The notes beneath the pieces were generated by a model. That model had not been told where the DNA came from. It did no database searches and was given only the letters and a program-made list of their open reading frames with translations. Of a stretch of 64,000 nucleotides of DNA, positions 2,583 through 44,215 are shown piece after piece; the stretch's first letter is position 1; each line of letters starts with the position of its first letter. A program made the position numbers and the translations under genes. The stretch is taken from the NCBI GenBank assembly GCA_003427395.1, contig BFEA01000008.1, forward strand, positions 2,174,336-2,238,335, written 5' to 3'. Source of the stretch: Chara braunii (lineage: Eukaryota > Plantae > Charophyceae).

Positions 2583-2613
2583 AACATGTTATTCGTTAAA
2601 ATAGGACATTATA
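2583..2613 (+). repeat. Left TIR of giant element
   Basis: AACATGTTATTCGTTAAAATAGGACATTATA. Confidence 0.9.
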
Positions 2614-2659
2614 ATATGTCCTCTTTCTAACGAATTCATTTTTGGCTGCATTCCAAGCA

Positions 2660-3260
2660 ACGTAGGCACGCCCATCCACGACTTAAGCACATGCAGAAGT
2701 GTGCCGAGATCCGTACTTGTGGAACTTTATAAATGATATCCCAAATGAGGAAGCGTGTTCAAACCCGTACATGTTAGGCACGCCGCACGGGAACCTTGTG
2801 TGGAAGTGTGCTGGGATCCTTACTTGTTGAACTTCAAAAACATGGCACTGCTGGGAATCCTGTGCGGAAGTGTGCTGGGATCCGTACTTGTTAAACTTCA
2901 TAAACGAATAACGACAGACACGCCCATCAGGGAACCCTGTGCGGAAGTGTGCTGGGAGCCTCACTTGTTGAACTTCAGAAATGTGTCGTGAATCTTGTGC
3001 CGAAGTGTGTCGGGATCCGCACTTGTTAAACTTCATAAACGAATAACGACAGGCACGCGCATCAGGGAACCCAGTGCGGAAGTGTGCTGGGATCCGTACT
3101 TGTTAAACTTCAATTCCATAATTGTGACGAGCAATGTGTCATGATTGCATCCTCGTTGGATAATTATATTAGAAGACGTAGAGTAGCGACAGGCACGCCC
3201 ATCCGGGATGCCTGTGCGATAGTGTATCGGGAGCCACACTTGTCAAACTTCAAGTTTGTG
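2660..3260. repeat. Left subterminal tandem repeats
   Basis: ~7 copies of GAAGTGTGCTGGGATCCGTACTTGTTAAACTTCA-like units, a variant of the 24-bp motif. Confidence 0.8.
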
Positions 3261-3959
3261 AATGTGATGAGCAAGTTGTCATGATTGAATCCTTGTTGGA
3301 TAATACTATTTATTTCTTTTATGCGTGAGTTGTATATGCATGGCTATCGTCTCGTCCGAGGCGGTTGTCTGGATGTTGTAGAGATTCAGACTTCTTTAGA
3401 AGTACAAACAGTAACTGTTATTTTTGACATACAATTTATTTTTCCCGGTCAAGAACGCAAAATTGTCGGTCACATGTAATTCAAGCGGTCACAAGTACAT
3501 GATTGTCTATGCACACAAGAGACGTGATGTCACTGGTCTTTCACTCTTTGCATAACGAACCTCACACCCACACACTCGCCGAGATTTGTCGTGCATCCAC
3601 ACTCCAATTCGTCATGTCGCACCACACACACGAATATCATTTCGAGGTGAATTATATGCACAATCTTGGATGACCTGGACACAATTTGCAACGAGGACTG
3701 CAATGCAATGAATGTAATGACACGACAAACGAGCCGGACCTGACAGAGATTCTGAAGGCAATACGTGACACCAAACTGACAGTCAACATACCAAAGACAA
3801 CTCAAACCCGCAACACTGAAAAAAAATAATGTCGTTGTGAAAGCGACAGTTAAAATATGAAATATTCTGAAACAGAAGTTTGCAAATCAATCGAATCCAT
3901 CAAAGACAACGACATTCCAAGACACATGATGCTAGTTGTCGTCTAATATACGGAATATT

Positions 3960-4643
3960 TTAACAAGAGAACCTGAAAGGCGGTCGATCGCCACGTTGCA
4001 ACAGTGTTGCAAACATCAACATAAACACCCCGCAACGAACTCCATCCACTTGTCTAGGAACTCCCTCTATAACAACATTTGCTGCCACCGACTTCCAGCA
4101 CCTGCACGAGCGCCTATGTGATGTTTGACATTCCAAATAGTGTACGATCAACTCGAAAACACTAAGGTAAAAACTAGAATCGGCTACAACGCAAGGAAAA
4201 GAATCGAAAATCTCAAGAACATTATCTCTCAAACTCACGGAAAGGAGGATCCAGTGATCATTATCTTTGAGGACTGAAACAAAGATAATATCATATTCAA
4301 GCAGATCCACGTTTTTAACCCATCTTTCCACCCCGCCGTGCCCTTGAAGTTGCAGTTTACTGAAGAAGAAAGAATTAAAGGTGAAGACTCGAAGGCCTGG
4401 CGGGATGTCACTTGTCCCATATGCGGTCGTTCCTAATAGCGCCATGTAGAAGTTGACCACCTCATCATTCACCCTGCCGTCGGTAAGTGAGAGGGTGAGA
4501 ATATCCTTCGCTGCAATTCGCAACTGGCCATCGTGGAGGGTTGAGAGTACAGTGTCAGGTGGCACCAAGCCTCGTTCAATGTCGTCTAAAACCCGCAAGC
4601 TTCCAATCGCAGTCACTGCTGTTCCAGGTGCCGTGGCCTGCAC
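3960..4643 (-). CDS. Ulp1/SENP-family (peptidase C48) protease domain, probably a terminal exon
   Basis: LSLTDGRVNDEVVNFYMALL, FNSFFFSKL, VERWVKNVDLLEYDIIFV, DHWILL (His), FDS (Asp), PRQVDGVRCGVF (Gln/Cys). ORF begins at a GTG beside a pyrimidine-rich TGCAG acceptor-like site. Confidence 0.9.
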   Translation of the reverse strand: MQATAPGTAVTAIGSLRVLDDIERGLVPPDTVLSTLHDGQLRIAAKDILTLSLTDGRVNDEVVNFYMALLGTTAYGTSDIPPGLRVFTFNSFFFSKLQLQGHGGVERWVKNVDLLEYDIIFVSVLKDNDHWILLSVSLRDNVLEIFDSFPCVVADSSFYLSVFELIVHYLECQTSHRRSCRCWKSVAANVVIEGVPRQVDGVRCGVFMLMFATLLQRGDRPPFRFSC

Positions 4644-5012
4644 TGCACAACATCGAGCAAAGGACAGGGGGGGGAAGTGAGAAACGGAACACTAAGGATT
4701 CTCCTTCATCACACGGCGAGTAGCTAAGTATTTCTCATACATGGCCTGACCCCTAGTCACAGATCGTGGATATGTCCTTTTCTCTGGGGGCAGAAGGGAA
4801 AGACACTCCTCAATGGCAATGGCATGCTCCTTCTTCCCGATTTCGACATCAACCCTTGATGCCCTTAACATGTCCTTGTGTTTTGTCGTCAACCCCGGGA
4901 CTGTATGCAATATGTGTTCCGGATATTTAGAGGGTCTCCGTGTTCGAGACGACCCTACCCCTCTACAACAGAAGAAAGACAAAACGGAAAGTGAATACAC
5001 GTTTCCGAAGAA

Positions 5013-5570
5013 GAACCCGACGAAACGACAATTAAAGGACCACGAAATCTAAAAGACACAAGACCCATGCAATTACAGAACCCCGTCATGCCATGAGAGT
5101 GCGAGAGAGAGAACTTCCGCACCAGCCACGTTGCAAAATAAAACGAGCAGTGCACTCGAGCTCGACACCCCCGCCCTTCAGAAGGGAAAAGCACATCAAG
5201 TCACAGAAGGGGAAGGCAAACATCTATGAAGTCCGGATCCCGGCGGACTTTTCCAACCCAGGGAGATGACCCAACCCCTGTGCCACCGAAGGAAGAGAAA
5301 ACGAAAAATGAACTCACGTAATCCAAGACGAACCCGACGAAAACGACAACTCAAGAACCACGAAATGTAGAAGACGCAGGACCTATCTATTTACAGAGCC
5401 CCGTTTAGCCATGAGAGAGATATAGAATACTTCCGCGCAGGCCCCACTGGAAAACAAAAGGAGCAGTGCGTTCGACATCGACACCCCGCCCTCCAGAAGG
5501 GAAAACCTCAACAAGCCACAAACCCGGAGGCCAAACATTTGTGAAGTCAGGATCCCGGCGGCCTTTTCCC
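5013..5570. repeat. ~245-bp diverged direct duplication (5013-5256 / 5330-5570)
   Basis: Both copies start GAACCCGACGAAA(A)CGACAA and end in a copy of the 24-bp motif. Confidence 0.75.
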
Positions 5571-6800
5571 AATCGAGACACCAAAAGAGTAACCGCGTTA
5601 CGCAGCGGCCTTGGCAGTGCGGATCCCGGCGGACTAAAACCACCACTCGTGTGAGGGAACGCTTCAACAAAAACACACATGTTTTTGTCTCGTCCGCATT
5701 GACAGACACTGCGGTCACTAGCGCGCAGACAGAGTGGCGTTTGTCACAGCTTACCAGCTGGTTTGTCTCTCCACTCCATAATCGGCGAAGTTGGTACGGG
5801 CAAGGCCAGCACGTCGAGAGCTCGAGTGTCGGCGACAGTTTTTTAGGGGATGTGACATCTTGTTGTCCCCCGATCCCGCCTTCTCCTCCGCTGGCGATGG
5901 TCGGCGGCAGCATCGGAGAGCTCGTCGGGGAGAAATCGACGACAGATCCCCCGGAAGGTTTGACGTCGAGAGGGTCGTCGACACCAGGCATCAAGGACGG
6001 CTGCGCGGACATGTGGTGGTCGCCCAGGATGCCGTCGATAACTTCTTCGATGTCAATACACACACTCGGTTTAGTCAGACTGACTGTTACACGAGCTTCG
6101 TTGAACCGGTGTTGGAGATCGACGGCAGACATCATTGCTTGGACCTCATAGTCATCACGTTCTGCCGAAAGGCTTGTGACCACCTCTGTCTCCATACCCA
6201 GTGCCGTGTCATCGTCGTCGTTGTCTTCCTCGCGGTGTTCTCCATACAGCTGCCCGAATCCGTCAGAAGACTCCCCAGATCTGTCATCGTCGTCGCTGAA
6301 AGTCTGTTCGTCGTCTCCTGTATCGAGTTCACCTTTTTCCCCCTCCTGCCCTCCTAGCAACCCAGCCAACTTCGTTTCTTCCCCTTCCTCTCCTTCATCC
6401 TCTTCTTCCTCCCCTTCATCCCCTCCTTCCTCCAATTCCTCCCCTGTGTCTCCTTCCTCCACTTCCTTCTCTTTGTCCATCACCCTGCCTTCTTCCCCTG
6501 CATGCAATGCAGCCACTTCGCCCGAACCCGTGTCGATTTCCGATGAATGCGCTTCCCGCCCGCCGCACGCAGCCCCTCTCGCCAACACCAATATCCCTGG
6601 TTGGCCCCCCTTGCCTGAAGATGTTCGGATCCCGACGAACTTCGCCGACTCCCTGTCGCTGGGCCCTCCACACGCCTTGCCTGAAGAAGTTCGGATCCCG
6701 GCGAACTTCGCCGTCTCCCTGTCGCCGGGCCCTCCACACGCCTTGCCTGGAGAAGTTCGTATCCCGGCGAACTTCACCGTCTCCCTGTCGCCGGGCCCTC
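5383..6800 (-). other. Acidic/low-complexity ORF (probable linker of the cargo gene) with a 66-bp tandem repeat x3 at ~6600-6800
   Basis: E/D-rich 464-aa ORF; repeat unit KFAGIRTS.GKACGGP.DRE, each containing the 24-bp motif. Confidence 0.45.
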
Positions 6801-7044
6801 CTTCCGCACCCTCTCGCTTCGACTAAAGCGGTTGGCGATCCCCCACAGGCGGCGAAGTCCCATCCCTCACCGCACCGCTGTCTATTTTGGGATGACGACT
6901 CGCCACCCCCGGTCCTGACCAGCTCTACGTGTCCGTCCTCTCTGTCCGCTCTGTAAGCATTGAAGTTCGGATCCCGGCGGACTTGAACGTTTCGACCGAG
7001 CCGGCACGGAGAGCAACCAAGGCCGCCATCACCGAGCAGGCGGA

Positions 7045-10000
7045 TCAACTGGGCACGTCCTTCGACTGTGCCGAGCATTCCGGACCGGGACCGGTAGACT
7101 GCTGACGCCCGAGGGCCTCCCCCGTTACCCCGCCGCTGCCTTCCGTTGTCGTGGTGTCGCCCTGAGACCCGCCCTCATCCTCGTCGCCCTCGTGTTGTCG
7201 CCCCGGGACTTGTTTGCCGCCCCCAGCCTTGTCGCCCTTGTTCTCCCCACCGTCCGGTCCCCAGGACCCTGTACTTACATGCATCCCACAGGGAGGGGGG
7301 ATTTTCCAGTTCACCCTTCCTTTGGAGGGGCTCGTGTCGAGGTCGTAGTAGTCCTCCGTCAGCTCCAACCAGCACTTGTCCTGAAGTTCGGCGAACAATC
7401 GCCCGGCTGTGGAAATGACGGACACGTCTTCGCGTGCGAAAGAGCCATTCTCGGCCCTCACTTGCTGGAGGACCGCAATTCTAGCGATGTCGAGGAAGTC
7501 AGACTTCGACCCGCGAGGGAGTGGCATCCATCCTCCGTCCGGGACAGCGACCACCACGATCCACTCACCCTTTTGGATCGCCGGCTGGATGACTCCTGGA
7601 TGCTTAATCATGTCATGGCCCCAATCCGCCTCCGTGGAACGACTTTGAGGCTCAGGCAGGAAGTGAATGTTGGCATTCGTCCAAGACAGATGATCGGGCG
7701 GGATGTCAGACCCGGGACGCAGTGAGCGATGGCCGGAGGCCAGAGCTTGCATTCTCTGCAGCAACTTCATCGGGGTAGTGCTAGGCGCTGGTTTCGCTAT
7801 CGGTGACACAAGGGACGCTGGGCTTGTTGACGGACCTGCCAAGGACAACCCTGTAGCGTGCTGCGCGGAATGTTGGTCGTACTGCAGGTCGAGGCTTTCG
7901 GTGTCGCTGCCCTCCTCGTCCGCGGTCGCGTCGAACTCGATGTCGGTGGTTTCCTCGTCTTCCGTGGAGATCAAGGAGGAGTAACTGTCAAACGTCAGCT
8001 CCTCCTCTGACTCCACGAAGCAAAGGGACTGCAACCTCTCGAGGAAGGTCTTCGTGTTCATGCGGGAGGCGTCGTGGTAGTTGTCGAGCAACGTGAACAT
8101 GTGGTCCTTGCGGTGCACGTACTCGGCGTCGGTGTCTCTCTTCGGCCACGTTTACAAGAACAAGAAGTCGTATATCTTGTTCCGCTTCCTCGCACTCAAC
8201 TTGAACCACATGTCCGTCTTGTTGTTCCACGCGCGAGCCCGAGTCCCGGTGACGACCATGAACTCGCAATTGTGGGCACCCGAATTGACCTCGCTTTTGA
8301 CGAGATCAATTGTAAATTGCAAGAGCTCGGAGTTCCCTTTCTTCGCGATGACGTGTCGTCCTGCCTTCAGTACTTCCCAGACTGACCGCGCGTGTGGCTT
8401 CCCGAGGAAGACGACACCCTCCCCCTTCTTGGTGACGGATTCGAGAAGCTGAACGAATTGGGCAGGGTTGCATTTCATGTCCCCGTACACAATGCCCCGA
8501 CGTGCAGGCGAGGAATGCAACCAGTCGCAAGCGTTGAATGGGATGTCGGACACATCCGTTTGCGTAACCTTCTGTGGTACCCGCACTGCAGCAGCGGTGC
8601 CTGCCGGCAGTTTCCCCTCGTAGACAATGGACGTGTTGACCCGCAAATCGTCGCCTTTGAAGAGTATGTACATCCGGTCGTCTTCCGTGTACAAATTGTT
8701 CCCGACGGGGAAGCTTTTCTTCTGTTGACTCCTCACCCACTTCCCTTCCAGCAGCTTGACGAAAGAAAGATGGTTCATGCAGGCCAGAAAGTAGAGGTTT
8801 TGCTGCCGCAGAATAAAAACAACGAGCATCCAATGCGACGGACACCACGTCTGGAGTTGGGAATCCAGAGTGTCGAACGCTTGCGGTTTCAAAAGCTTCA
8901 GGTCCACCAGTTCGTACAGATCGAGGACGAAGGTGTGACTCTTTGTGGCAACCACTGCCTCCTTCACCTCCGCACTCCTTATGTCTGCCTCCAAGGGGTC
9001 GTTGCCGAATGGCGCGATGGATGTCACGTTGCCCGTGTCATTCCATTTTATGTGCACAATGCCTTCGGCGAGCGCGATCTCTCGACTCTTCAGTCTACTG
9101 CCAGTCAACACGGACAGGACCTTATTCCTCCAGTCGACGGACAACTTCTTGTGACCGGCCAGCTTCTCCGTCGCCTCGATCGATCTGTCGTCGTCGCAGC
9201 CCATGTAGGGCGGGCAGTCCTTGAACAGCGAGGAGTCAGTGACGTATTTCGTGCTCCCATCCCACAACTCAGCATCCAAACCACGACTCTCATTCCGGAC
9301 CTTGATTTCAGGAACGCGAACCTCTGGCTCCAATCCACGTCCAGCCTTTTGTCGTGCTTGAACTAGTAGTAGTTCCACAGACGCACCAGCACCCGGTTGC
9401 ACTTCACCAGATTCACCACCTCCTGGACGCTCAACTTTCCGAGCTTCGCCAACGCTGGGGAGCCGGCCTGTACCCAAAACACCTCGCAAGCGAGCACCTT
9501 TTTCAGGACGTGGCACTTCTCGTTGTCTGTCAGCGACTCCATCGTTTTCCAACAATGCGCGTCCGGCTCTGGCACTTGCACGAACCACTCGCCCTCCTCT
9601 TTCTCCTTTTTGCCTTTCTTTGTCAGCGGGTCCATAGGGACGTTGTACACGACCTCCTTCCTGCCCAGCTTGTCATTATGGATGTATGCAACCCCAGGCT
9701 TCACATTTTTGACTTTCTTCTTCCGCATGATCCACTTTGCGCCGTCGTGTTCGAGCAATATGCCTGTCTCCCATTTCTCGAAAAACTTGACGGCCAGTTT
9801 CCAGACGTTCTCCCCTGCCATCGCCAGTGGGAAATAGGAGCGCAGGGCAGCGCCTTGTTTCCTGATGGCCTCATCGCCCTGCTGATCTGCGAGAATCCAC
9901 AAGTTGTTGTGCGGTGTCATGTTGAGTGCGACATTACAGAATTCACGCCACTTCCGGACCTGATCCTGTTTTCCGATGGGGTTCCCCATAACAGCACGCG

Positions 10001-11629
10001 GGCAACCGGCGCGCTTCCACTGCCACCTTATGTCCCTCATTGACAGCTTCAGCTGTCGTGGGGGCGCCTTCAGGTCCTTCTTGTTGTCCTGGGAACTGAC
10101 AAGGAAGTACCCTTCGAAGTCGTCGTCCGAAAAGTTGACCATTCGTCCAGGCCACCGCTCGAAATCGTATTTCCTGGCCACCTCGCTGCCGAGCATCGAC
10201 CTCGCTGCAGCCGCATTGTGCTGCCCACACACCGCGTTGTAGTAGTATTGTCCCGCCAGCTCATCCCTCCAATCCTCCGGCCTCAGATGTTCTGCCTTGG
10301 TCCCCGGAGTCGGTTTATCAAGCCCCAGCACGCCAGCTTCAGGGTTGGTAAATCGTAAGATTGGGCTTTGTTTTCGAACGCCAACCGCATCGCTTCTTTG
10401 ATCCCTTCCACGAGCACGGGATCCAGGGACCACTAGTTGTACAGGTCCTCCCAGTCCCCGAGGTCGACGACCTGCGCAGGGCTAATGTCGAACTCCCGCT
10501 TTGTCCGAACGCCGTCTTTGTACTCGAGGAAGTACCCGGCGTCGACGTCGATGGGAGTCCCTGTTGTCGGTGGAGAAGACGGTCCAGACTCAGGCTGCTT
10601 CTGTCTCGAAGACGGTCGTTTGGCAACCTGCCGGCCCTGCTCCCCCTCGGTCCCCTTGCGTTTCTCCCCCGCAGTCCTGGGGGCCTTGCTCTTTAACTTC
10701 TTCGTAGAACCGGCAAACTCGTCTCGACGATCCCCCCTCCTCTTTTGCGGAGCTCCTTGCGAGCCTAGGCCTCCCTCGTCCACCTCCTCCACACCCTGTC
10801 CCTCGCTCGCCTCCAAGTCGACCTCCGAATAGGCCGCCACCTGTACTGCAGGCCCCGTACTCTTCCGCTGAACCGGAGCATCAGTCTGAACCCCAGGAAT
10901 AGACAACACAGACCGCCGCATGTCACTCAACGACAGAGCAGTCCCCTCATCCTCGCTGTCGTCGAACTGACCTCGGCTCTCGCCACGGTGCAGCTGAGTG
11001 GCGGGACCAGAACCCAGATCACCGCCCTCCGCCGCTGCCCCGCTTGACTGGCAACCACTGCATAGCTTCAACGACAACGACAGCTCCAGGGATGGGTTGA
11101 CGTCGCAGGGGACGTCTAGAGCGATGTTTTTGTCCTCCAACATGTCGAAAAATTCACATGCCAAAACAAAACTGCCCCCGAGAACGAGTTCTCTGTAGAA
11201 CAGGGTGTTCACAGCACCCGCTCCGAACCCCTCACACAATTCAAGGTCCAACAATGTCCTTTTCGAATTGGCAACGACGTTGCCCTTGGCGCCATAAACT
11301 TTCTGCATATAGAAATGTCGCCGGCCCCCCTTTGCGTCCTCCCACCGCAAGACGGCACCAAGCACTCTACGCCTTCTGCTGTCATCGATGAAGATGACTG
11401 GACCACATGGCTGCCCAGTGGGGTTGGAAGCATCTCCACAGCACCAGTCGATGAACCATTTCGACCTCGAATGGTTCGACCACCCCTGCGTGGCAGTAGA
11501 CGACCGCCTTGTGGAATCTTTTCGTGATTCCTTCACGGAGGTCCCTGTTGGCTCCACCTCGCCCTTGGAAGAAGACGTACTGTCTGCGAACGACAACGCA
11601 AATCGAACAGCACACCATGAAGTCAACGT
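7045..11629 (-). pseudogene. Long disrupted cargo gene: N-terminal domain, ParB/Srx-like domain (~10500-10050), beta-class N6A/N4C DNA MTase-like domain (~8950-8290), unknown C-terminal domain
   Basis: ORFs 10433-11626, 9363-10433, 8152-9588 and 7045-8118 join through in-frame stops (10433, 9363, 8152) and frameshifts (~10332, ~9290). ParB-like: FDISPAQVV..YN*WSLDPVLVEGIKEAM..LPTLKL..YYYNAVCGQHNAAAARSML..WPGRMV..LVSSQDN. MTase-like: FVLDLYE..GKWVR..NNLYTEDDRMYILFKG..NPAQFVQLLESVTKKGEGVVFLGKPH..VLKAGRHVIA. Confidence 0.65.
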
Positions 11630-13048
11630 CTGTCAAAACACAGGAGAAATAGAACACTTGCTGCTGCACGTCAATGCAGGCTGTAGCGCAGCGAAAACCG
11701 CACACGAAGACACCCGGGCACCCAAATCCGGAACGGTGAGAAGGGGTAGTCCGCCGGGATCCGAACTTCAAGTGAGCAAGAGACCGAGAGGCAGACAGAG
11801 AGAGAGAAGCAAGTGAAAACTCGCAGTGCGCATGGGATCACGCGCTGTTTATGCAACACACAGGGCACCCCGTAGAACAAAGATAGACAAACGCACAGTG
11901 AAAATCGCGAAGTCCGCCGGGATCCGAACTAAAGGACGGTGCGTGAGATAGAGACGGTGGAAGCAGATTTCGGGAATTTTTCGCAGGAATCAACTGGCGG
12001 TCATGTTCGAAGCTCTCCGGGTGAGATAGAGCCAGCGTCCCAAAACCGTGCTCGACCAAACGCACTCCGGAACCGTTGTTGGGCGGGTTATGCAACCCAC
12101 CCGGAACCACGAAGACTCACGACAATGCAACGCACCTCCCGAAACGTGAAGTTCGCCGGGATCCGAACTTCAGGACGATGCGACAGGCAGAAACGGCGTC
12201 AGGGACACACGATCCTTAAGTCTAAGGTTGTTAAACTCAACCCCGACCCAGGAAGACCACATCGGAATGAAAGGCTGGTTGAAACTAAACCGAACTACTT
12301 CTGATTTCCGATCTCGCGTTATGCACAACTTGGCACTGGATGAACCCAAGCTCGAAAGCGACAGCCGTGTCAACATTTCATAGGTCCTTGGACTCTGGCT
12401 GTTGCCGGAATCCACGAGGGATCCGGAAGACCACCGTCTGTGGCAATAGACAGGCGACTCCTGAAGTTCGCCAAGACCCGAACTTCAGGAGGACGCGAGA
12501 AAGAGAGACAGAGAAAAACATTGGAGCAACTTCGAGTCCAAACGCAAGACGGTGTTCGACCAAGGCGCACCAGGAAAAACCCCGAGGTTCCACAGCCGAC
12601 CGCAGGTTTTGATGGCAGCAGTCATTGAGTCCAGGCATAATTGGTAGCAGGACCGTTTCCGACTCCGCTCAGCACTCGAAGCTCGGAGGCCGGTAGGACG
12701 CACAGGCCAAACCGCGAAGTTTGTCGGGATCCGAACTTCAAGAGGGCGCGACACCGAAAGAGACGCATGCACTAGCAACTGCTGCCTCCCGCGCCTTTCT
12801 CCACTACTAAAACTCTGCTATGTTCGGCAGTACACAAGCCTCTCACTCGTCTCCCTTCTTTTCGCTTAAGCAGGATGTCCAACCACACATCCAAATTTTG
12901 TGACAATCGCGGTTACCCGGGGACGAGGTCGCGAACCGTAGCCATACGAAGCATTCATTGATGATCCGTAAACGCGGACCAGCGGATCGTCGACCGTTGC
13001 AGTTTCTGAAAAGACGGACATGTATTTCATCCTAACAAACACTCCCGG

Positions 13049-13962
13049 TCATGCTAAGGAGTTCCCTATACAGCCCCGTATGGCGGACACTTTCTCCTCG
13101 ACCTCCCTATGCAACGAAAAGTTTTGGACCGGCCCTGCTATAACCAAATCTCGCCACCCATCTACACGTTCAGGCCCGCGCGTCGGCACGAATTTGGACC
13201 CCTCAATTACCACCTCGTTGTGTGATACAAGCACAACTGCATCGACGAGTTTCCTGCTCTTGTTCGACACAGCGACACATAGAACTCTGGCGAAATCAGA
13301 CCCAGACACTTTCAATCGCACACAACAGTATGACACAACTTGTGGAGAATTCCCGGGGCACCGGAGCGGGTACTGGTCCAAGAACGAGCAGTGACGAGCG
13401 CAGTCCAACAACTCTTGTTTCCACGAGCCTCCCCAAGTTCGTGGCGACGACCTGACCTGACATAGTGGCATTCGAGGTGGCTGAAATTGCGGCTAATGCA
13501 GCCCAGTGCTCTGCGCATGTGGTTCAGGAACTTGTGTCCGAGGACAGCATTAGGCAGCGGGATGAGGTTCCCGAACTCCAACATGTTGGCGAATTTGTAC
13601 TGGCTTGCCCAAGGGCAGCGACTCTCCATCGTGGCCCAATTCCCATCACACCAATCGTCAATATCCGCGTCCCTGCATGGGACAACGGTCATCCAGGGGT
13701 CCTCGTCGAAGTCCTCTGTGGTCGCTTCGTGGATCGTAGTCACACCGTTGAAATGCCGCACTGATCTCGCGCAAGGAGGAAACGGTTCTGCCAAGCAAAT
13801 GTGCGTTTCGGGACTCATGGTTTGTGGTGTCGAGAAGATCGACTCAAAGATTCGTGGTGTCGAGAAGGTCCCATCCATTACGTGCCCTACACACCACGCG
13901 CACATACCAAACGACACACACGGGGACGCTGACACTCGTAAACATAGTTGGCGAGCAATCAA
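13049..13962 (-). pseudogene. Frameshifted ORF pair of unknown function (cargo gene or upstream exon)
   Basis: Overlapping ORFs 13312-13962 and 13049-13471 give a complex, protein-like ~280 aa with a shift near 13450; same strand as the other cargo. Confidence 0.4.
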
Positions 13963-13977
13963 ACGACATAGGTCCCT

Positions 13978-14890
13978 CGCTGTGGTTGTGCACTGGGGTT
14001 GGAACGCAAGTTGGGTTTTACGAAAGGCAAGAACCTGAAGTTCGCTGGGATCCGAACTTGGCGAAATGCCGTGGGAGAGACACAGTTGTCTATCAAACTC
14101 GCATTTCCATTCTTTCTTGAAGTTCGGATCCCGGCGGACTTCACATTTTCACAGGTCCACTGTTGTGGTTGTGCACTGGGGTTGCAACTGGAGTTGGGTT
14201 TTACGAAAGGCAAGAACCTGAAGTGCGCTGGGATCCGTACTTGGCGAAATGCCGTGGGAGAGAAATAGTTGTCTGTCAAACTTGCCTTTCCATTCTTTCT
14301 TGAAGTTCGGATCCTGGCGTACTTCACATTTTCACAGGTCCACTGCTATTGTTGTGCACTGGGGTTGCAACTCGAGTTGGGTTTTACGAAAGGCAAGAAC
14401 CTGAAGTTCGTCGGGATCTGTACTTGGCGAAATGTCGTGGGAGAGAAACAGTTGTCTGTCAAACTCGCCTTTCCATTCTTTCTTGAAGTTCGGATTCCAG
14501 CGGACTTCACATTTTCACAGGTCCACTGCTGTGGTTGTGCACTGGGGTGGCAACTCGAGTTGGGTTTTACGAAAGGCAAGAACCTGAAGTTCGTCGGGAT
14601 CCGTACTTGGCGAAATGCGGTGGGAGAGAAACAGCTGTCTATCAAACTCGCCTTTCCCTTCTTTCTTGAAGTTCGGATTGCAGCAGACTTCACATTTTCA
14701 CAGGTCCACCGCTGTGGTTGCCCGATGGGGTTGCACCGCGTGCTAGGTCTTGCGGAAGGTGTGAACCGGAGGTCCACCAGGATCCGAGCTTGGCGAGATT
14801 ACGTGGGAGAGACACAGATGTCTATCAAACTCGCCTTCCCATGCTTTCTTGAAGTTCGGATCCCGGCGGACTTCATATTTTCATAGGTGC
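13978..14890. repeat. 183-bp tandem repeat x5
   Basis: Units start at ~13981, 14164, 14347, 14530, 14713; each has two oppositely oriented 24-bp motifs. Confidence 0.92.
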
Positions 14891-16153
14891 CCCGCTGTCG
14901 TGTGGTGGCTGCAAAACGTTCGTCGTTGGATGACCAACAAGTTTCGATGACCGACGAGGTTTGCCTTCCAGTGGCGTTCGATGTCCGCCAACATTTCGAT
15001 GCCCGCCGAGGTTTGATGGGGCGCCAGGTTCGATGCCAAACAAGGTTCGATGGCCAGCAACGTTTGATGTGCAACAACGTTGTCACGTACTGTCTTTTGT
15101 CCATTCCCGAACAGGGATCGACCTTTTTCATGGGTTTCTACCGTCTGGTGGACCAATCGCCTTGCATGCTGTGTGCGACCAATGGACGAGGAGGCAGGTC
15201 GAATGCAGTGCAATCGGGGCGAGAAAAGTGAACCGCTCGGCTGGCATGTCGGTGCCCTGGTCGGCGAGCGGCCGATCAATCAGCTAATTGGACAACCACG
15301 AACCGAAAAGTTGATCAATCAACTAATCAGTTACTCGTGCTGGATCGGTCGTACGTTTGTTGGATCAGTCGTACGCCTGCCGGTTGGGCGATCGCACAGA
15401 GGGTGATGCCACGGTTGCACCGCAAATACACGTTCGGTTGTATGGTTGGTGGACTGCTGGATCAACCGGTCGTCCGACCGAAGTCCGAACAGTCGTTCAG
15501 TGATGTTGGTAGTGATGGATCTATTGACCAGTCTACTGTTCGCTCGGGGTACATCAACGAGTGTGATGGATCGGTCGCTCGCCGCCCGGTTGGTCGTTCG
15601 CGCATGGTGCCACGTGTGTTTTGTTATTACATTTGATACTGCCAAAAAACACACATGCTGTGACAACATTGAGACAGCACACGCGATCAATCGACCGATC
15701 GCAAGCTCTCTATTCGTGTTCGGCGATTGGTCGACTGGGTGCGTCTACTGTCTCGACAATGTCACCTCCTGCTTTGATTGATCATCCATTCGGCAGATCA
15801 GCGGCGGTATCGTGATCAATCGTGATGGTCCTGTTTATCACTCACGTGCGGTATCGCCGATGTCACCACTCACGTGTGGATGATTGATCTGATGAGTGGA
15901 GAAAGATCCGATCTGCCGCGCGGTTATTATGTTTCGTGATCGGTCGCCTCGCGCTCGATCGAAGCTTTCATCATGCATCAGTTACTCAGCTCATGAGATC
16001 TGCCCAATGAACGACCGATCGAAACACGCGGTGACAATGTCGAGAGTGATCTGATCGTGCTCCGTCGATCAGGACTGCATATAATCAAGGAATATTATCT
16101 ATCTTGTTCTCTGGACTGTCTATAATCAATAATGAATACTATCAAATCAATGA

Positions 16154-16689
16154 ATGTTGTCTATCTACCCATCTATTGTATCTTTGTCGCCGCGTGTTTC
16201 GATTAATCATCCTTTGGGAAGATCGATGGCTACTGCGTTGGGACAGCAAACAGGAACAATGGAGTGTGGTCAGTGGTCAGGATGTGATGAACTGACGAAT
16301 GCCGATAGCTCCGATCGAACGGGCTGTGGCCGGTCACGAAACATAATCACCCCGCGCTCGATCGGATGTTTCTCCATTCATTAGTTTCATACACAACAAG
16401 ATCACATGAGATCCACACACAAACGTGTGGATCTCGTGTGCTCTTGTTGTGTATGAAAATGATGAATGGAGAAACATCCGATCGAGCGCGGAGTGTTTAT
16501 GTTTCGTGACTGGCCACAGCGCGTTCGATCGGAGCTATCGGCATTCATCAGTTCATCACATCCTGACCGCTGACCACACTCCATTGTTCCTGTTTGATGT
16601 TTGAATGTCGTAGCCCTCGATCTGCCCAAAGTATGATTGATCGAAACACGAGGCGACAGAGATACAATAGATGGATAGATGGACAACAG
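16154..16689. repeat. ~535-bp near-perfect palindrome (loop ~16419-16424)
   Basis: Arms are reverse complements (GAGATCCACAC-acaaac-GTGTGGATCTC at the centre); a degraded extra arm lies at ~15875-16040. Confidence 0.92.
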
Positions 16690-17892
16690 ATTACAGTTCT
16701 TCATTACAGCGTACGCAATCGCCGGCTATTACGCACGCACGTCGCTCAATGCCAGAATACATCAGGATTACCCTCGGGATGCGAAACAATTCATTCAACC
16801 ATCGCCGCACACCTTGGCGACAATCTACGCGTGTTCAATCGACAAAACAACACACACGCACATGAACAGACACATGCACACACACACGCACACACAATCG
16901 CACACACGCCGCGTACACAAACACGCCCCTGACATAGAGACACTACATACGCAAACCCAAAAAAAAAAATGCTTTAACACACAATCAGCCGCATGCGCAC
17001 ATGCAAACATACACTCGTCACGCACAAGCAAACACAAACACAACCGCACGCACACATGCAAACACACACTCGTCACGCACAAGCAAACACAAACACAACC
17101 GCACGCGCACCTGCAAACACACACTCGTCCAAACAGCGCAGACGTGTCAGCAGAAAAGCCGCCCACAAGCGCTCACAGAAACACACACGTCCCGGGTTCG
17201 TGCGCACTCACCTTGTGAGAGTGTCGAGTGGAGATGCGTGCGGATCTGGACGTCGATCGAGACAGGAATGCTTCGACCTTGTGCCGTGCGCTTTGTGTTG
17301 GTGATGGTAATGCGTGGAGCGTCGGATGCGCTAATCCAGAATCGAGATGTCGTCGTTGAGTCGACGGGATGTCGACGCGCGACGTCGAAGATGACGCGGG
17401 CAGCGACTAGGGAGGTGGAGGGAGATGCGTCGTAGAAAAGGTAGTGACCGGGGTTTAGAACGACTATCCGTTCGCTTCGCTACCTATGGTGCTCCAACTG
17501 TGCGGGGCGATGGTGTTGACGACAGTGGTGGTGCGAGGCGTCCGTCCGGCAGCATCTCCCCAGCAAAAAACGCAGAAAGCGGCGCTCACGCCCCGGGCGC
17601 CGCTCGTATTTGTAGGCGCGCGTGGGTCGGGTCCCCTTCGGGTCTTCCATTTCGGAGTGCCTCGCAGGGTCCGTTTGACGCCGCGAAAGGTTGGCCACAC
17701 GTCGGTCCGCACATCGAACGGTGGCCACACGTCAAATTTCCCGCTAGGGGGGACCCGGTGCGCGCGACATGGCAAAAAAAGTCCCTTCGAACAGGGCCTT
17801 CCCGGGGGTCATGGAAAAGGGCCGTCGTCCCTGGCCCCTTGCATTCTTGTGTTCGCGTTCGCGGGCCCCACCAAAGGGGTTTTCGGGCTGCG

Positions 17893-17893
<1 letters not shown>

Positions 17894-17933
<40 letters not shown>
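17894..17933 (+). repeat. Poly-G tract (40 nt)
   Basis: Seen directly. Confidence 0.9.
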
Positions 17934-18795
17934 CGGAGGCGGTTGGGCCCGGTTTTCCGCAGTGCGCATTGCGAAGTCGCATTCTGGCTGTTCGATTTGC
18001 GGATCGGACGACCATAGTGTGTCTTCTAACATGGTGTCACGTCCTGCGCGGGCGTCCGACGTGCATTTTCGAACCTGGCGTGGGGTGCGACGACAAATGA
18101 GTATCTGAGTGGGGTCTGGTGCTGCCCATTTGCGTCTCCTGCCCGACGAGCTGGTCCGCGCGACGTCATGTAAGCGACTTCCTCCATCGCCTGAGCAAAA
18201 TCCGTTGTCGCGCCTCGTGTCTCCGAGAGCGGGCGTCTTGATTTCCCCCCGCCATCGCGTCAGTCGAATGACCTTCAACATCCCCTCTTGCGTTCCGCGT
18301 CATCGCGTGTCCGCTGTCGTCTGCGCTTCGCCCTCGTGACATGGCCGACCACGCCATTCAAGGTACAGTGCTGTTCTGTCTGGCCACGTGTCCTCCATCG
18401 ACTACAACTGCTGACGTTGGGGTTGAGGTGCATGCTTGTGTGACCATGAGACGCGTTGCATCGTGCCACGTATAGCGGGTGGCGGGTACCCCTGTCGACG
18501 TGAAGGGATTTGAGTCCGCGGCGTCCATCCCTGCATGTTGTTCACTCTCGCTCATTCATTCCTTTTCTGTGATTCGTTTTCTTGTTCTGTGTTCATTCTC
18601 GCTCGTTCATTCCTTTCATGACTTCATTGCTTGTCCCTTTCGATGTAAACCACCCCCGCGCAGATATGTGCGCGGGATTGAGACGACACTAGTTGCCCTT
18701 GTGTTGCCACGTAGTCGACAGAGCCACATATTCAGTGACGAGAACCTGAACACGGATCGATGACGTCCTCCCGTTGTTGAGCGCCACCCCTACTC

Positions 18796-19085
18796 AGCGT
18801 AAGAGACAGCCACTGCATGCCAAGTGGATGATCGAGAACCGCGCGCAGATCCCTGTCGTGCTCGCACAGTCGCCNCCCCCGCCCCCCCCCCTGTGTGAGA
18901 GAACCTTTCTCTCACACAGGGGGGGGCGGGGGGGGCGACTGTGCGAGCACGACAGGGATCTGCGCGCGGTTCTCCAAATGATTAAATGTGCGAGCACGAC
19001 TGGAGGGCATTTGTGCGAGCACGACTGGGATGCGCGCGCGGCTCTCGATCATCCACTTGTCCTGCATTGGTTGTCTCTTACGCTT
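18796..19085. repeat. GC-rich hairpin/inverted repeat centred ~18905
   Basis: CCCTGTCGTGCTCGCACAG...CTGTGTGAGAGA-acctt-TCTCTCACACAG...CTGTGCGAGCACGACAGGG; outer arms AGCGTAAGAGACA / TGTCTCTTACGCT. Confidence 0.88.
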
Positions 19086-20119
19086 AAGATGGCTGGTGTC
19101 CAACACCGGGAAGACGTCTTGCCACTGAACATGTGCCTCTGTCGCCGTAGAGACCACGTGTCAACCTGTTCCCCCCGCACACAGCGTGCAGATCATCCGT
19201 CCTAGAGCCCACCGATGTTGAGCGCGAGCTGCTGGCGCTGGTCGTGAGCGATGCGCTGCGTCACTCCTTGCGACCAGCGAGAGGAATGTGTGCGCGACAT
19301 CTGAGGGCTCCATGCCAAAGAACGCACAAGCGGTGTGCGCGCGATGGAGAACGACATCGCAAGTCGCCACAACGACGATGCCGTTTTGTCGGCGTGATCA
19401 CCGCTTGCGTCGTGGAGAACACCCCGTGGTCACCGGTTGTGTCGTGAAACACCCCGTTTTGTCGGCGTGATCACCGCTCGAGTCGATGGCCTCGTTCAAC
19501 ATCGAACAACGTGGTCCCCGCCGCGATACCAACGCGGCCTCCATGTTGTTCACTCTCGCTTGTGTCGAGGGCCTCGTTCAACATCGAACAACGCGGCCTC
19601 CATGCTGTTCACTATCGCTTGTGTCGTGAAGTGTCATGGTGATGTCGTCGCGTGGCCATGGGGAAGAGCGCACGCACATGACAACACACCAACAATCATG
19701 TTGTAGTTCGCGCTTGCAGTTGCAACGGCGACCCCACTTGCCCGCACGAGTCGATAGCTCCGAACACCCTGCCAGCCGCCACCGTGCGAGGGTCGCAACA
19801 CGAAGTTCGGATCCCGGCGAACTTCGCTTGTTGGCGCTTGCGATGTGGCGAGCTGCGCAAGGAGTTTGTCGGCGTCATCATGTAGACTTGCGCTGTTAAA
19901 ACCACATAGCCAACGCTGTGAGCTTCCATTGTCGGTGCACGTAATGACACAAAGCGCGTCTGTCGCTTTATTTCCTCTCCGCACGAACGTAAGAGCATAT
20001 CCAACACTTTTGGCTGTTCAAACTACGGTCCAAACATTTCTACAAGCAATTTCTTCTGAAAGAATTCCTGGAATAACCTTCTGAGGCAGCCGCCAGGCCG
20101 TGGTGATGTCACCTTCTAC

Positions 20120-22300
20120 AATCCAAGTTCGGATCTCGGCGGACTTCGGGGTTCCGCGCAAATCCAACCGCCCCGTTCAAGACCCCGGACTGTCCGACGT
20201 GGTCTGCTAGTCGGAAACCCTGGGGTGCGCAAAATGCTCGCTTCGAGAAATGGCTTATAGGGGTTTATGGGGGGGTGCGCCCAAGCATCGCCTGCTTCTG
20301 TGCAAACGCCAAGCACCTGTTCCTATAGATGCGACCGCGCGAAAACCTGTTACTCGCTACACTCGCATCCGCCAAGTTCGGATCCCGGCGGACTTTGAGG
20401 ATCCGCGGGAAACTAACCGTCCTTCGCATGAGGTGTGGACCTTTGCGTGCGAGTTGCTACCGGGAGGAGTATTGGTTCGTAAAATTCCTCGCTGTATGGA
20501 ATGCCCATTCAGGGGTTTACAGGGGTTTCCATCGGTGCCATCAAGCGTGTCCGTTATCGGGGTGCCGTCGATCCCGACGAGTTTTGGCAGTCGGAGGCCC
20601 TGGGGTGCGCCGAATGCTCGCTTCAAGAAATGGCTTGTAGTTGTTTACTGGGGGTGCGCCCAATCATCATCTGCTTCTGTGCAAACGCCAACCAACCGTT
20701 CCAACAGTTGCAGCCGCGCGAAAACCTGAGACTCGCTGCACTCGCATCCTCCAAATTCGGATCCCGGCGGACTTTGAGGATCCGCTGGAATCCAACCGTC
20801 CTACGCATGACGCGTGGACCATTGCGTGCGACTTGATTGCGAGAGGAGTATTGGTGCGCAAAATTCCTCGCCGTCTGGAATGCCCTTGTAGCGGTTTAAG
20901 GGGGTTGTCGTTGGTGGCAGCAAACGTGTCCGTTGTCGGTCTGCCGTCGATCCCGACATGCTCTGGTAGTCGCACGTTCACATAGCTGCAGCCACAAGAA
21001 AATCAGTTGCTCGCTGCACACACATCCGCCAAGTTCGGATCCCGGCGGACTTTGAGGATCTGCGGCAATCTAATCGTCATTCGCATGAGGCGTGGACCTT
21101 TGCGTGCCCGTTGCTTCCGGGAGGAGTTCTGCTGCGCAAAATTCCTCGCCGTCTGGAATGGCCGTGTAGGGGTTTATGGGGGTTGACGTCGGTTACTGCA
21201 AACGTGTCCGTTGTCGGTCTGCCGTCGATCCCGCAGTGTTCTGGTAGTCGCAGGCCCTTCGTTCCGCAAAGTGCTCGCTTCAAGAATAGGCGTTTAGGGA
21301 TTTATGGCGGGCGCGGCCAAGCATCACCAGCTTCTGTGCACACGCCAACCACCCGTTCCAATAGTTGCAACCGCGCGAAAACCTGTTACTCGCTGCACTC
21401 GCATCCGCCAGGTTCGAATCCCGACGGACTTTGAGAATCCGCATGCATTTAACCGTCCTTCGCATAAGGCGTGGACCTTTTCGTGCCAGTTGGTCCAAGG
21501 AGGAGTATTGGTGCACAAAATTCCTCGCCACCTGGAATGCCCGCGTAGGGGTTTATGGGGGTGGTCGTCGGTGACAGCAGACGTGACCTTCATCGGTCTG
21601 CCGTCGATCTATGTTGCCCCCTACGGGTTTGGACCGTCGCGGAGCGCGGAGTCTTGTCGTGGACGTGCTCGTGTTCCGGTGCGCTTTCCGGTTCGCGCTG
21701 TCGCACGTCGACGTTCCCGGCGCGCGAATCGGGGTTCGCCTTGTCGATTGGCGGAGTCGGGGTTTGGGAGGGTTGCAGGGGAGGGGGTCTTTCATCCATT
21801 TCTGCATTTCGACATGTTATTTACGGGAATCTGACCGTGGGAATCTAACCGTTCTTCGCATGAGGCGTGAACCTTTTCGTGCGAGTTGCTTCCAAGGGGA
21901 GTATTGTTGCGCAAAATTCATCGCCGTCATGAATGCCCGTGTAGGGGTTTGTGGGGGTTGCCGTCGATGACAGCAGACATGTCCATTGTCAGTCTGCCGT
22001 CGATCCCGACGTGTTCTGGAAGTCGGAGGCCCAGGGGTGCGCAGAATGCTCGATTCAAGAAATGGCTTATGGGGGTTTGTGGGGGGTGCCCCCAAGCATG
22101 GCCTGCTTCTGTGCAAAAGCCAACCACCCGTTCCAATAGTTGCAGCCGCACGAAAACCTGTTAATCGCTGCACTCGCATTCCGCCGAGTTCGGATCCCGG
22201 CGGACTTTGAGGATCCGTGGGAATCTAACCGTCCTTCGCATGATTCGTGGACCTTTGCGTGTGAGTTGATTGCGCGAGGAGTATTGGTGCGCAACATTAC
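20120..22300. repeat. ~380-bp diverged tandem array (5-6 units)
   Basis: 24-bp motif at 20373, 20752, 21030, 21409, 22185 with shared flanks (CGCGAAAACCTGTTACTCGC, AAAATTCCTCGCCG). Confidence 0.85.
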
Positions 22301-24614
22301 TCGTCGTCTGTGTCTGTAGGGGTCAATTTGGGGTCGCGCTGCGCCGAATTGTATGGTGGTACATCCACCGCTACCCTTTGTTCTGCGAGTGTTGTCGCAC
22401 GACGACCAATTGAAAGCGTGATGGCCTTGCTTCTGTGCGCCCGAAAATAACGTTCCTTGCGTGCCCCCGCTGATGCTCCCTTCAAATGACACCAGTCGCG
22501 CAAAAACCGGTTCCTTGGTGCTCCAAGGCCCGCTTGAACGACGACTCCCTGCGAGCTTCGGGACTCTCCGTTATTCTGACCGTCATTTTCAACGGCTTAG
22601 ACTTCCCCGTGCGTTTTTGTGCGCGGTGGCCTGGTGGTGCGCAAAATTTTTCGTCTTGAGGATTGCCCTTAAAGGGGTTTATTGGGGTTGACGGCGGTTT
22701 CTGTGGCCGGTTCGAAATGCGGTCTGCCGTTGATCTTCGTTGCCCTCCGATNAAAGGAATCGTCGCGACAGGTGAGGTTCAGTCGCCGATATGCTTCTGC
22801 CTCGGCGTGCTTTGCAGTTCGCGCGGTCAGGTGTCAATATTGCCATCGCACAAGTCGGAGATCGCATTCTCGTTTTCGCGGACCAGGATTTGTTGGGGTT
22901 CTGGGAGGGTCTTCCATCCATGGTTGTAATTTTCTTCTCCACGCCGCCTGGGTGTTGGAGTTGAGCGTTGTTCTACCTTTGCCTTTCGAAATCAGGTAGT
23001 TTGGTCGATAGGGGCAATCGGTGTTCGCAGGGGTCTCTTGGGGCCCGCGCTACGACGACTTGTGAGGTGCTGCACTCACGACTAGCCTTCCTACTTACAG
23101 CGGCAGAGCGTGGACACGAGGTTCGGAGCGCGGCGAACTTTCCAGTTCTGGGTGATGCTAACCGTCCTTTTGCGCGGCCTGGTCCATCGCTTGTGTTGTT
23201 ATTGTCGGGGACCCATGGGTGCGCAATCAAGCTCGCCGTGTGTGTTGCCGTGGTTGGGGTATATAGGGGTAGCTAATGGTGGCAGTCATTATTGTCGTTC
23301 GCGTGCGGAGACGCTTCGGTGAGAAGCCGCGCGGGCTGCAAAGGCTTTCAGTACAGACACACATACTTCGAATCGACATGTAGTTACTCGGGGGTTGTGG
23401 GGGTCGGTTGAGGGTCATTAAACCATGTTATTTTTTGTCTTCTTCCTCTCATACCATTGCTTTCGTTACGTCGATTGGCCGACNNNNNNNNNNNNNNNNN
23501 NNNNNNNNNNNNNNNNNNNNNNNNNNNNNNNNNNNNNNNNNNNNNNNNNNNNNNNNNNNNNNNNNNNNNNNNNNNNNNNNNNNNNNNNNNNNNNNNNNNN
23601 NNNNNNNNNNNNNNNNNNNNNNNNNNNNNNNNNNNNNNNNNNNNNNNNNNNNNNNNNNNNNNNNNNNNNNNNNNNNNNNNNNNNNNNNNNNNNNNNNNNN
23701 NNNNNNNNNNNNNNNNNNNNNNNNNNNNNNNNNNNNNNNNNNNNNNNNGGGGGGTTGGCCCTTAATTCTGTAGTAATCGTGCTTACAGTTTGCTCTGCTG
23801 TTTTGCAGGGTGTGGAGACGAATTCGAATGAACCGTTTAATCCGCACTGGATAGTTTAATCGATTTCGCTAACGGGAATCACAACCGTTGCACCGACGGT
23901 TACATGACGGCGCCAAAGACGGCTCGGCGAANGGCCGCATGAAACGGNANATGGAAACTGAAGAAGCCGTCGACTTGCATTGCCAGCTACAACACCTGGA
24001 ATTGGCCCCGACGAGCTCTTCGGACAGTTCGCCGTTCCAACAGTCCACTGCAGTTTTCCTCAGAAAAAGAAGTCTAGCTTTTCGTGAGAGCTTTGGAGGT
24101 TGCATCCAACTGCCTACGGATTTGGCGACAACGTCCGCAGGTGAAGAACCGTCTGCCTCCTGGATCGAGTTCCACTTTCCTGGCGAGGTGAACCTCGCCA
24201 CTTCGGCGCACAGCAGTTGCGCGCGAATGGGTGCTTCTTACACAACATCTGATGACGAGAGTGAGAAGTTGGTGGCCACTGATTACTCATCTGGACAACA
24301 GTCCTCTTCCACTAGACCTTTGCTTCGCGCTACCTCCGGTAGTACGGAGTTGGTAGCCACCGACTATTCTTTGGAGGAACTTTCCACAGCACGGGCAAGT
24401 CCAACGCAAGTGCGAAGTGATGATGCGAGAAGGGCGATACTGCAGATTTTGCCCGCACCTCTGTCAGGGGTGATGCAGAGAGAAGGGCGATGCAGAGAGA
24501 AGGGCGATACAGAGTCAGACTGTGTCGGAAGCGTCTGACACGGGTGATGCAGAGAGAAGGGCGATACTGCAGATTTTGCCCGCACCTCTGCCAGGCGAAA
24601 GACGAACGTATAGC

Positions 24615-26177: not shown

Positions 26178-26659
26178 AGCAAGTGACATGTTGTGTGCGT
26201 GACGCCATCGGTAAGTCCTTGGCAAGTGTCTGTAGGTTTGTAAGGGTGAAGTACATTTCGGTGTTCTCGAGGGTGGCGACGAATGGACAACCACAAACCC
26301 TTGTTTTCGAGTCGTCTATGAATGCCTTATACGGGTTTGGTTCTAACGGGACGCGGGGACATCGGTAGGAACTTCAAATTTTGTAAATGATAGCGTTTTT
26401 GAAAGTTTACATTTTTGCGGCTCGTAGCGTTTCATTTAGACGTAGTTCAATGTAGAGTTCGCTTGTAGCGTTTAATGTAGACGTACTTCAATCTTGCATT
26501 TGCGATTTTTTGCATGTGTCGATACAATGTTGAACTTTAGTTACCAATACAATTTTTGACTTTTAATTTTTCATGGGTACGACATTTCTTGGAGTGAGAC
26601 AGAATCCATGGTACTCACGTGAATTTCAGCTTCATATGACAATGTCATATCGGTTTTTG

Positions 26660-27300: not shown

Positions 27301-27453
27301 TCCATCATGATCAGTAAGTGATTGCCTTGAATCTCCAGTTTATATTCAATTTATGGTCTCTCAATTGCATTCTTCGGGTTCCTAAGTTTCATTCAGGTCC
27401 AAAATATAGCAATTTTAACATGAAATTAATAGCGTGCGAGTACCAATTTAAAA

Positions 27454-27484
27454 TATAATGTCCTATTTTAACGAATAACATGTT
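27454..27484 (-). repeat. Right TIR of giant element
   Basis: TATAATGTCCTATTTTAACGAATAACATGTT, the exact reverse complement of 2583-2613. Confidence 0.9.

Positions 27485-44141: not shown

Positions 44142-44215
<74 letters not shown>

Follow-up and report, generated by a model that had tools for sequence, protein, structure and literature searches.

We examined a 64,000-nucleotide stretch of the Chara braunii genome (contig BFEA01000008.1, forward-strand positions 2,174,336 to 2,238,335; hereafter the window, from whose first letter all positions are counted). Within it lies a 24.9-kb DNA transposon bounded by terminal inverted repeats (TIRs), which encloses a minus-strand gene whose product is predicted to combine a ParB-type domain with a β-class amino-methyltransferase (MTase) fold that lacks the canonical catalytic motifs (Table 1). 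The element displays the hallmarks of a cut-and-paste TIR transposon, namely TIRs, a target duplication, a putative transposase, and, at its right junction, many insertion sites. In two DNA runs from one sample, 34 and 39 contigs depart from the reference exactly at 27484, the right end, to which the read-based junction test applies. Their flanks are unlike one another (agreement beyond this position of 0.37 and 0.35 in the respective runs), and therefore the right end has been inserted at many sites. The duplication is a 4-bp TTTT rather than the 4-bp AWWT that is the hallmark of Sola1 elements (PMC3845634), and a 5-bp duplication with an uneven end also fits.

Table 1. Positions of the transposon, its repeats and its coding features within the window.
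Feature	Position	Strand	Basis or remark
TIR DNA transposon carrying the gene	2583..27484		Inverted repeats, TTTT flanks, right-end contig pile-up
Left terminal inverted repeat	2583..2613	+	Perfect 31-bp match; TTTT outside at 2579-2582
Right terminal inverted repeat	27454..27484	-	Perfect 31-bp match; TTTT outside at 27485-27488
24-bp palindrome GAAGTTCG-GATCCCGG-CG(G/A)ACTTC, 34 copies	2697..23141		34/34 window matches inside the transposon
Conserved C-terminal domain, ~105 residues, WGHDMIWHP type, behind an acidic linker	7318..7632	-	jackhmmer, 101 rows
Predicted pseudo β-class N6-adenine/N4-cytosine MTase domain	8260..9060	-	Paralog model matches and motif counts
Middle region, mostly helical, linking ParB and pseudo-MTase parts	9061..10089	-	Stop at 9363-9365 and frameshift near 9291 here
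Predicted ParB/Srx-fold domain with N-x-R and GQH boxes	10090..10537	-	Model residues ~10-157; stop and frameshift here
Conserved N-terminal domain, ~110 residues	11093..11467	-	jackhmmer, 71 rows among 200 stored proteins
Multi-copy coding region upstream of the main gene	13049..14148	-	Matches 18/200 gene models
Ulp1 (Peptidase_C48) SUMO-protease domain	3960..4646	-	Pfam E 1.1e-18; His, Asp and Cys triad residues present
DUF7869 protein	24768..26177	+	Pfam PF25273 E 2.5e-54; high multi-copy DNA depth

A first-pass annotation, made from the sequence of this DNA, had proposed a degenerate MTase-like domain at 8290..8950, fused downstream of a ParB-like domain. The motifs quoted for that domain lie in one frame of the minus strand, with a stop-to-stop open reading frame at 8152..9672. 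All of these motifs were found, in order, from 8940 to 8332: FVLDLYE within 8940-8905, GKWVR at 8745-8728, DDRMYILFKG at 8682-8653, CNPAQF within 8478-8455, EGVVFLGKPHA within 8421-8377, and GRHVIA within 8361-8332. The domain itself is there, with an extent (~9060-8260) slightly longer than had been given. The window copy, however, is a pseudogene with three stops (10433-10435, 9363-9365, and 8152-8154; glutamine in paralogs) and two frameshifts (near 10330 and 9291) when aligned to the paralog P0028; at 9291, one DNA contig has 13 additional bases. The ParB-MTase fusion is therefore out of frame here and intact only in paralogs, where it is continuous in P0056, P0106, P0028, and P0039. The window copy also carries private substitutions, including a lysine at the motif-II position and the tyrosine of DLYE, for which the family form is DLCE (Cys in 40/56 rows of that column, Tyr in 0/56). 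DLYE had been taken to occupy the DPPY position, and its interpretation as a DPPY remnant was rejected because the tyrosine is private to this copy.

The fold of the MTase-like domain was approached by profile and by structure. Comparison of a family profile of 56 rows with a β-class MTase profile of 40 sequences, built from E. coli YhdJ together with viral relatives, gave a local score of 30.7, as against a maximum of 19.0 in 30 column-shuffled profiles and 13.0 for the reversed profile. In the global alignment, which is colinear, the VLDLCEP strand falls at DPPY. The HH probability of the profile alignment is only 19%, and structural evidence was therefore needed. For the intact paralog P0056, an 850-residue stretch modeled by AlphaFold2 with 81 sequences gave a confident model (predicted local distance difference test score, pLDDT, of 84.2; predicted template modeling score of 0.62) with a permuted Rossmann fold, in which the counterpart of the catalytic region precedes that of the region binding S-adenosylmethionine (SAM). 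Every one of the 34 Foldseek rows shown for this model is a β-class or MT-A70 methyltransferase; CcrM leads (E 5.3e-7), followed by M.BceJIV, M1.HpyAVI, and M.RsrI. When the model was compared with 48,161 chains by VIA, its residues 490-767 were matched best by M.BceJIV (Z 16.6, root-mean-square deviation 4.0, 220 aligned residues), with CcrM (Z 16.5), Mod of Mbo45V (16.1), M.PvuII and M.RsrI (15.6 each), and the rotifer N4CMT (8s9n; 15.4) close behind. Ranks 1-11 are prokaryote-type β enzymes (Z 13.9-16.6), whereas ranks 12-20 are MT-A70 enzymes (9.4-13.6), and the C5-cytosine enzyme M.HhaI reaches only 5.3; an MT-A70 or C5 origin of the domain was rejected on these lower scores. In BFVD, a viral structure library, amino-MTases of phages and giant viruses head the named matches, and ParB-annotated proteins stand lower. 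The β-class fold and motif order that had been read from the letters are thus recovered over the whole domain in the paralog model, including the Rossmann fold for which M.PvuII and M.RsrI had been named as references.

The loss of the canonical motifs extends over the entire family. Counts refer to those of the 81 alignment rows in which the motif concerned is covered with no more than one gap. Motif IV, [CS]H-T-x-V-L-D-L-C-E-P, has the aspartate in 53/56 rows and lacks PPY, and [DNS]PP[YFW] has 0 occurrences anywhere in the 180 proteins scanned. Motif I reads V-x-F-L-G-K-[AP]-H-A (Phe 53/68, Gly 61/68, His 59/68). The canonical DPFxGxG is absent, its D-P and second glycine being replaced, with at most F-x-G kept depending on the register. 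The motif-II acid, which ends the strand after motif I, is Glu or Asp in 67/69 rows, and E-R-x-P is invariant at the HPTxKP position. The 52 rows that span 75% or more of the domain resolve into nine subfamilies with mutual identities of 20-47%, and 28 columns are kept in at least 8/9 of them. All nine lack PPY and the canonical DPFxGxG and hold the derived motifs in common. Because subfamilies this divergent share the derived motifs, the altered state is old and conserved rather than a product of local decay; DPPY/SPPY is kept in none of the 180 proteins scanned, and the canonical DPFxGxG in none of the nine subfamilies. In the rotifer N4CMT, an SPPY-to-APPA change abolishes activity (PMC8885841), so methyl transfer by the Chara domain is unlikely, and the domain is probably catalytically inactive. 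SAM binding is still conceivable because the motif-IV Asp, Phe-x-Gly (in one register), and the motif-II acid survive. The inactive derivative suggested at first pass thus stands as regards the family-wide loss of PPY and DPFxGxG, while inactivity itself is likely rather than certain in view of the conserved Asp, Gly, and motif-II acid.

Upstream of the pseudo-MTase, the N-terminal part of the P0056 model matches seven ParB/Srx-fold entries with moderate scores that converge on one fold. The matches to PadC and KorB reach Z 7.2 each (root-mean-square deviation of about 3, 94-98 aligned residues), that to SerK 6.7, and those to Pnob8-like ParB, SbnI, sulfiredoxin, and Atu1540 fall between 5.3 and 6.0. 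The family retains an N-x-R box (Asn 47/48, Arg 43/48) and a box with a conserved histidine (46/50) that reads GQH[NT] at the Box II position, without the Arg of the GxxR-type motif; we take this to resemble a DGQHR-type Box II minus its Arg. Together, the matches and boxes agree with the ParB-like domain annotated upstream. Among ESM Atlas look-alikes of this region by language-model features, fungal DUF3723 clusters are best (0.96), but Pfam finds no DUF3723 match in 23 family proteins. DUF3723 is a conserved cargo gene of Starship transposons whose function is unknown (PMC9156397). The gene product very probably joins a ParB fold to a pseudo-β-MTase as transposon cargo.

Almost all of the family members that were named or looked up come from Chara. 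Querying with the window domain recovered 103 proteins, 21 of near length and 82 longer, every one a Chara braunii gene model, and CBR_g310 (P0024) is 96-100% identical to the window in most segments. A profile of 10 copies gave 123 matches among 1.84 billion representatives, 46 of which were already named as Chara. Of the other 77, 20 were looked up, comprising 18 Chara proteins, one JGI/IMG protein (P0122), and one Parashewanella protein (E 5.6e-8), which was rejected as a bacterial relative since it is spuriously matched through eight short repeats. A search with the 81-row alignment, scoring the 7990 candidates that had the most words in common with it, yielded 102 proteins, all from Chara, and no confirmed relatives were found in metagenome scans. 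When the family was searched by sequence against Pfam, NCBIfam, and PDB, neither an MTase nor a ParB match came up, and none to PF01555. In the ESM Atlas, the window domain is nearest to unnamed clusters of ~330 residues (0.95), with an N6_N4_Mtase cluster at rank 13 (0.86), which we regard as a lead only. P0122, encoded on a 7672-bp contig, is a complete divergent member about 20-29% identical to other subfamilies and may come from another charophyte.

The transposon also carries an array, overlooked at first pass, of 24-bp palindromes between 2697 and 23121 with 8-bp arms and an 8-bp spacer, of which 20 copies are on the plus strand and 14 on the minus strand (at most 4 mismatches to a 20-bp core). 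None occurs in the remainder of the 64-kb window, and each of 20 shuffled sequences gave 0-1 matches; the core was derived from the transposon's own repeats, so this shuffle test shows repetition, not function. The first palindrome lies 115 bp inside the left TIR, and the final 4.3 kb ahead of the right TIR holds none. Where the palindrome falls in a coding region, the peptide derived from it can be recognized, and such peptides are present in 20/32 proteins of the window's subfamily and in 0/20 from other subfamilies. Tandem arrays with units of 183 bp and ~379 bp (13967-14998 and 20194-22310) carry the palindrome. VANC proteins bind subfamily-specific motifs that have accumulated via tandem repeats in their own elements (PMC5735166), and the palindrome pattern resembles such VANC targets by analogy. 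ParB clamps, for their part, load at palindromes (10.1101/2025.10.10.680097), again a parallel by analogy.

Two further protein-coding features accompany the gene. The Ulp1 domain is joined to the family gene in 17/200 gene models, including ones with 26-42% identity to the window Ulp1. The DUF7869 protein we take, from its position and motif patterns, to be the transposon's DDE-type transposase. It is found in none of the 200 family gene models, and its linkage to the gene is therefore seen only in the window copy. DNA depth, when summed, comes to about 900-2900 across the gene and 4400-11200 across the transposase, as compared to roughly 10-16 for single contigs, which shows many copies and is not a copy number. 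Depth reaches 5000-8000 at 13049-14148, the highest in 3400-13900. Loose ends meet from both sides at 26129-26132 in DNA and RNA runs, which suggests an indel close to the 3′ end of the window transposase that sets it apart from most copies. For transcription, 6-13% of each read set from three poly(A) runs (X6, X7, and X8) was compared to 3400-13900, yielding 61, 461, and 92 reads, respectively, those of X6 and X8 being mostly simple-repeat matches. The X7 reads fall on both strands and in 29/30 bins, coding and non-coding, with only 4 at an identity of at least 99%, and they fit either carried-over DNA or diffuse transcription from other copies.

This broken transposon gene belongs to a family whose product likely acts as a self-recognizing DNA-binding protein rather than as a methylating enzyme; the mechanism as a whole, in which it would load at the palindromes and, with Ulp1, counter silencing, we hold somewhat nearer to doubt than to belief. 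We infer that an ancestral phage-type ParB-β-MTase fusion was captured; a horizontal origin is plausible, given the enrichment of ParB-N6_N4 fusions in phages and a fold nearer to prokaryotic enzymes than to eukaryotic MT-A70. Methyl transfer would have been lost early, with the MTase fold kept as a DNA-contacting and dimerizing module; β-class amino-MTases are typically homodimers. The ParB domain would then bind a nucleoside triphosphate (NTP), load the protein at the transposon's 24-bp palindromes, and spread along the transposon, and together with the linked Ulp1 SUMO protease, the protein may keep host silencing off the element in the manner of VANC in VANDAL transposons. The fullest version of this scenario is a giant transposon with its own ParB/parS-like system: an NTP-gated clamp that reads DNA and dimerizes through a dead phage methyltransferase, loads at palindromes, and shields 25 kb from silencing by spreading, with the DUF3723 of Starships as a distant relative in a similar job. 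We consider that version rather unlikely.

A number of results weigh against the silencing-counter reading. Modeled with 10 close sequences, the window domain gives a poor model (pLDDT 40), whose best Foldseek row is a β-class Mod subunit at E 0.054, with none at E ≤ 0.001, and the confident fold is that of a paralog 54% identical to the window domain. The ParB Z-scores are all below 8, a range that can reflect a common arrangement. SAM binding stays conceivable because hhalign pairs the family FLG with the F-x-G of FxGxG and because most rows retain the motif-IV Asp (53/56), the motif-I Gly (61/68), and the motif-II acid (67/69). For the horizontal acquisition that had been proposed at first pass, profile and database searches found no prokaryotic or viral sequence relative or donor. 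The transposase is an equally possible binder of the palindrome, the link between the gene and DUF7869 comes from the window copy alone, and the three sampled poly(A) runs hold no stranded mRNA signal of that copy, although this null says little on other copies or tissues.

What the protein would do at the palindromes is where the most credible alternative departs, and it too is unlikely in our judgment: the pseudo-enzyme may be a transposition accessory that, by binding the palindromes or the ends, condenses, pairs, or partitions the 25-kb transposon, with no anti-silencing role. DNA loading and sliding are described for ParB folds (10.1101/2025.10.10.680097), wider TIR spacing lowers transposition efficiency (PMC6431247), the palindromes begin close inside the left TIR, and the ParB region resembles Starship cargo by language-model features, all of which would suit such an accessory. 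Yet no palindrome lies in the 4.3 kb that precede the right TIR, Pfam lends no support to the DUF3723 resemblance, and the Ulp1 linkage and subfamily-specific motif arrays better fit chromatin conflict. The surviving residues raise instead the prospect that the domain still binds SAM, either as an atypical active amino-methyltransferase or as a sensor of SAM or S-adenosylhomocysteine that regulates the ParB domain. The motif-IV Asp, the motif-II acid, the motif-I Phe (53/68) and Gly, and the invariant E-R-x-P speak for this, but PPY is absent in 180/180 proteins, the D-P and second Gly of DPFxGxG are replaced, and the corresponding SPPY-to-APPA change kills the rotifer enzyme (PMC8885841), which makes the proposal improbable.

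The remaining two alternatives concern whether the domain matters to the transposon at all. That the gene is another mobile unit or a host gene family that sits by chance inside the DUF7869 element would account for the absence of the transposase from all 200 gene models, for a DNA depth several times higher over the transposase than over the gene, and for the fusion of some gene models to hAT, Plavaka, or retroelement domains. We nevertheless find it very unlikely, as a single motif family spans 2697 to 23121 and crosses the gene, the perfect TIRs have a duplication on their outer sides, and inner terminal repeats were not seen; the transposase lies 13 kb away on the opposite strand, and fused gene models are therefore not expected. 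Even harder to credit is a neutral relic that is carried by the transposon and decaying. The lesions of the window copy, the many fragmentary gene models, and the little RNA are what such decay would leave, but subfamilies only 20-47% identical retain the same derived motifs and the full domain length, and the family folds confidently. This retention would therefore require long selection in active lineages.

When compared to known systems, the Chara family shares with the β-class amino-MTases (PF01555; CcrM, M.BceJIV, M.RsrI, M.PvuII, M.MboIIA, and M1.HpyAVI) the predicted fold, the permuted motif order over ~220 residues (Z 14.7-16.6), the motif-IV Asp, and the motif-II acid. Unlike them, it lacks PPY and the canonical DPFxGxG, is only 8-13% identical, and forms part of a eukaryotic multidomain protein, and it is not a member of the active β-class MTases. 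The closest architectural parallel is found in phage and prophage ParB-N6_N4-MTase fusions, in which a ParB domain is likewise N-terminal to a β-MTase on a mobile element (10.1101/2025.10.10.680097, PMC4738411), whereas the Chara protein has a TIR transposon as its host, a helical insert of ~330 residues, a degenerate active site, and no sequence-level relative that we could find. In the ParB-fold survey, such fusions occur mainly in phages, and sulfiredoxin is the commonest eukaryotic representative of the fold (10.1101/2025.10.10.680097). The rotifer N4CMT (PMC8885841) and Marchantia DN4MT1 (10.1101/2021.02.12.428880) also place a bacterial-type β fold in a eukaryote, but these are active host enzymes with SPPY/TSPPY, while the Chara protein is motif-less transposon cargo with a ParB fold. 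Dead amino-MTase folds are retained in METTL14 and, by a transposon, in the N6-adenine MTase of the DIRS1 retrotransposon; the latter is a group-2 (PCIF1-derived) domain of a retroelement, the former is an MT-A70 partner subunit, and neither has a ParB domain in the account given (PMC4738411). The ParB- and helix-turn-helix-fused Dam enzymes of chlorophytes belong to a different class from the Chara family (PMC4738411).

On the transposon side, VANC of Arabidopsis VANDAL elements is similar in being an accessory gene with family-specific short motifs in the element's tandem repeats (PMC5735166). The Chara motif differs in being a 24-bp palindrome, homology between the two proteins is not to be expected, and the likeness here is one of genomic layout only. 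DUF3723 (PF12520; PMC9156397) is likewise cargo of large eukaryotic transposons and the leading look-alike of the ParB region (0.96), but the link to Chara has no hidden Markov model support and Starships use tyrosine recombinases, so that it serves as a lead only. Full-text literature searches listed no paper describing the Chara family, although a mention may exist in the supplements of PMC4738411 or of the ParB survey, in Repbase, or in subscription papers. The predicted ParB-MTase fusion is of a known type and is new in its setting, a eukaryotic giant transposon.

More than 100 Chara gene models, invisible to Pfam, carry the predicted fusion in a close relative of land plants, and the candidate target site makes ParB-type loading on eukaryotic DNA directly testable. 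The system may represent a second kind of transposon counter-silencing besides VANC, and it offers a lead on DUF3723. It provides no new plant source of N4-methylcytosine or N6-methyladenine, unless the atypical-enzyme alternative holds true.

Beyond the two predicted folds, the conserved N-terminal domain has no match in Pfam or PDB sequence searches, which also gave no support to a BAH-like reading based on resemblance. The C-terminal domain and the coding region at 13049-14148 have no Pfam match. Tandem copies of 66 bp occur within coding sequence at 6609-6806. Long inverted repeats within the transposon at 15889-16688 and 18762-19118 are probably nested MITEs (transposable elements of the miniature inverted-repeat type). 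Immediately to the left of the transposon, an 828-bp fold-back at 1747-2574 has arms of 384 bp that are 94% complementary. A MITE-like element surrounds the transposon (~1432-1740 and 27485-27740), and 30 contigs depart from the reference at 27740 with unlike flanks. Farther out, a long interspersed nuclear element (LINE) on the minus strand, with endonuclease, reverse transcriptase, and C-terminal part, occupies 1-1430 and 27750-32450; the nested insertions apparently divide it in two. Its parts to either side of the transposon resemble a second, fragmented LINE copy at 40163-47227, also on the minus strand.

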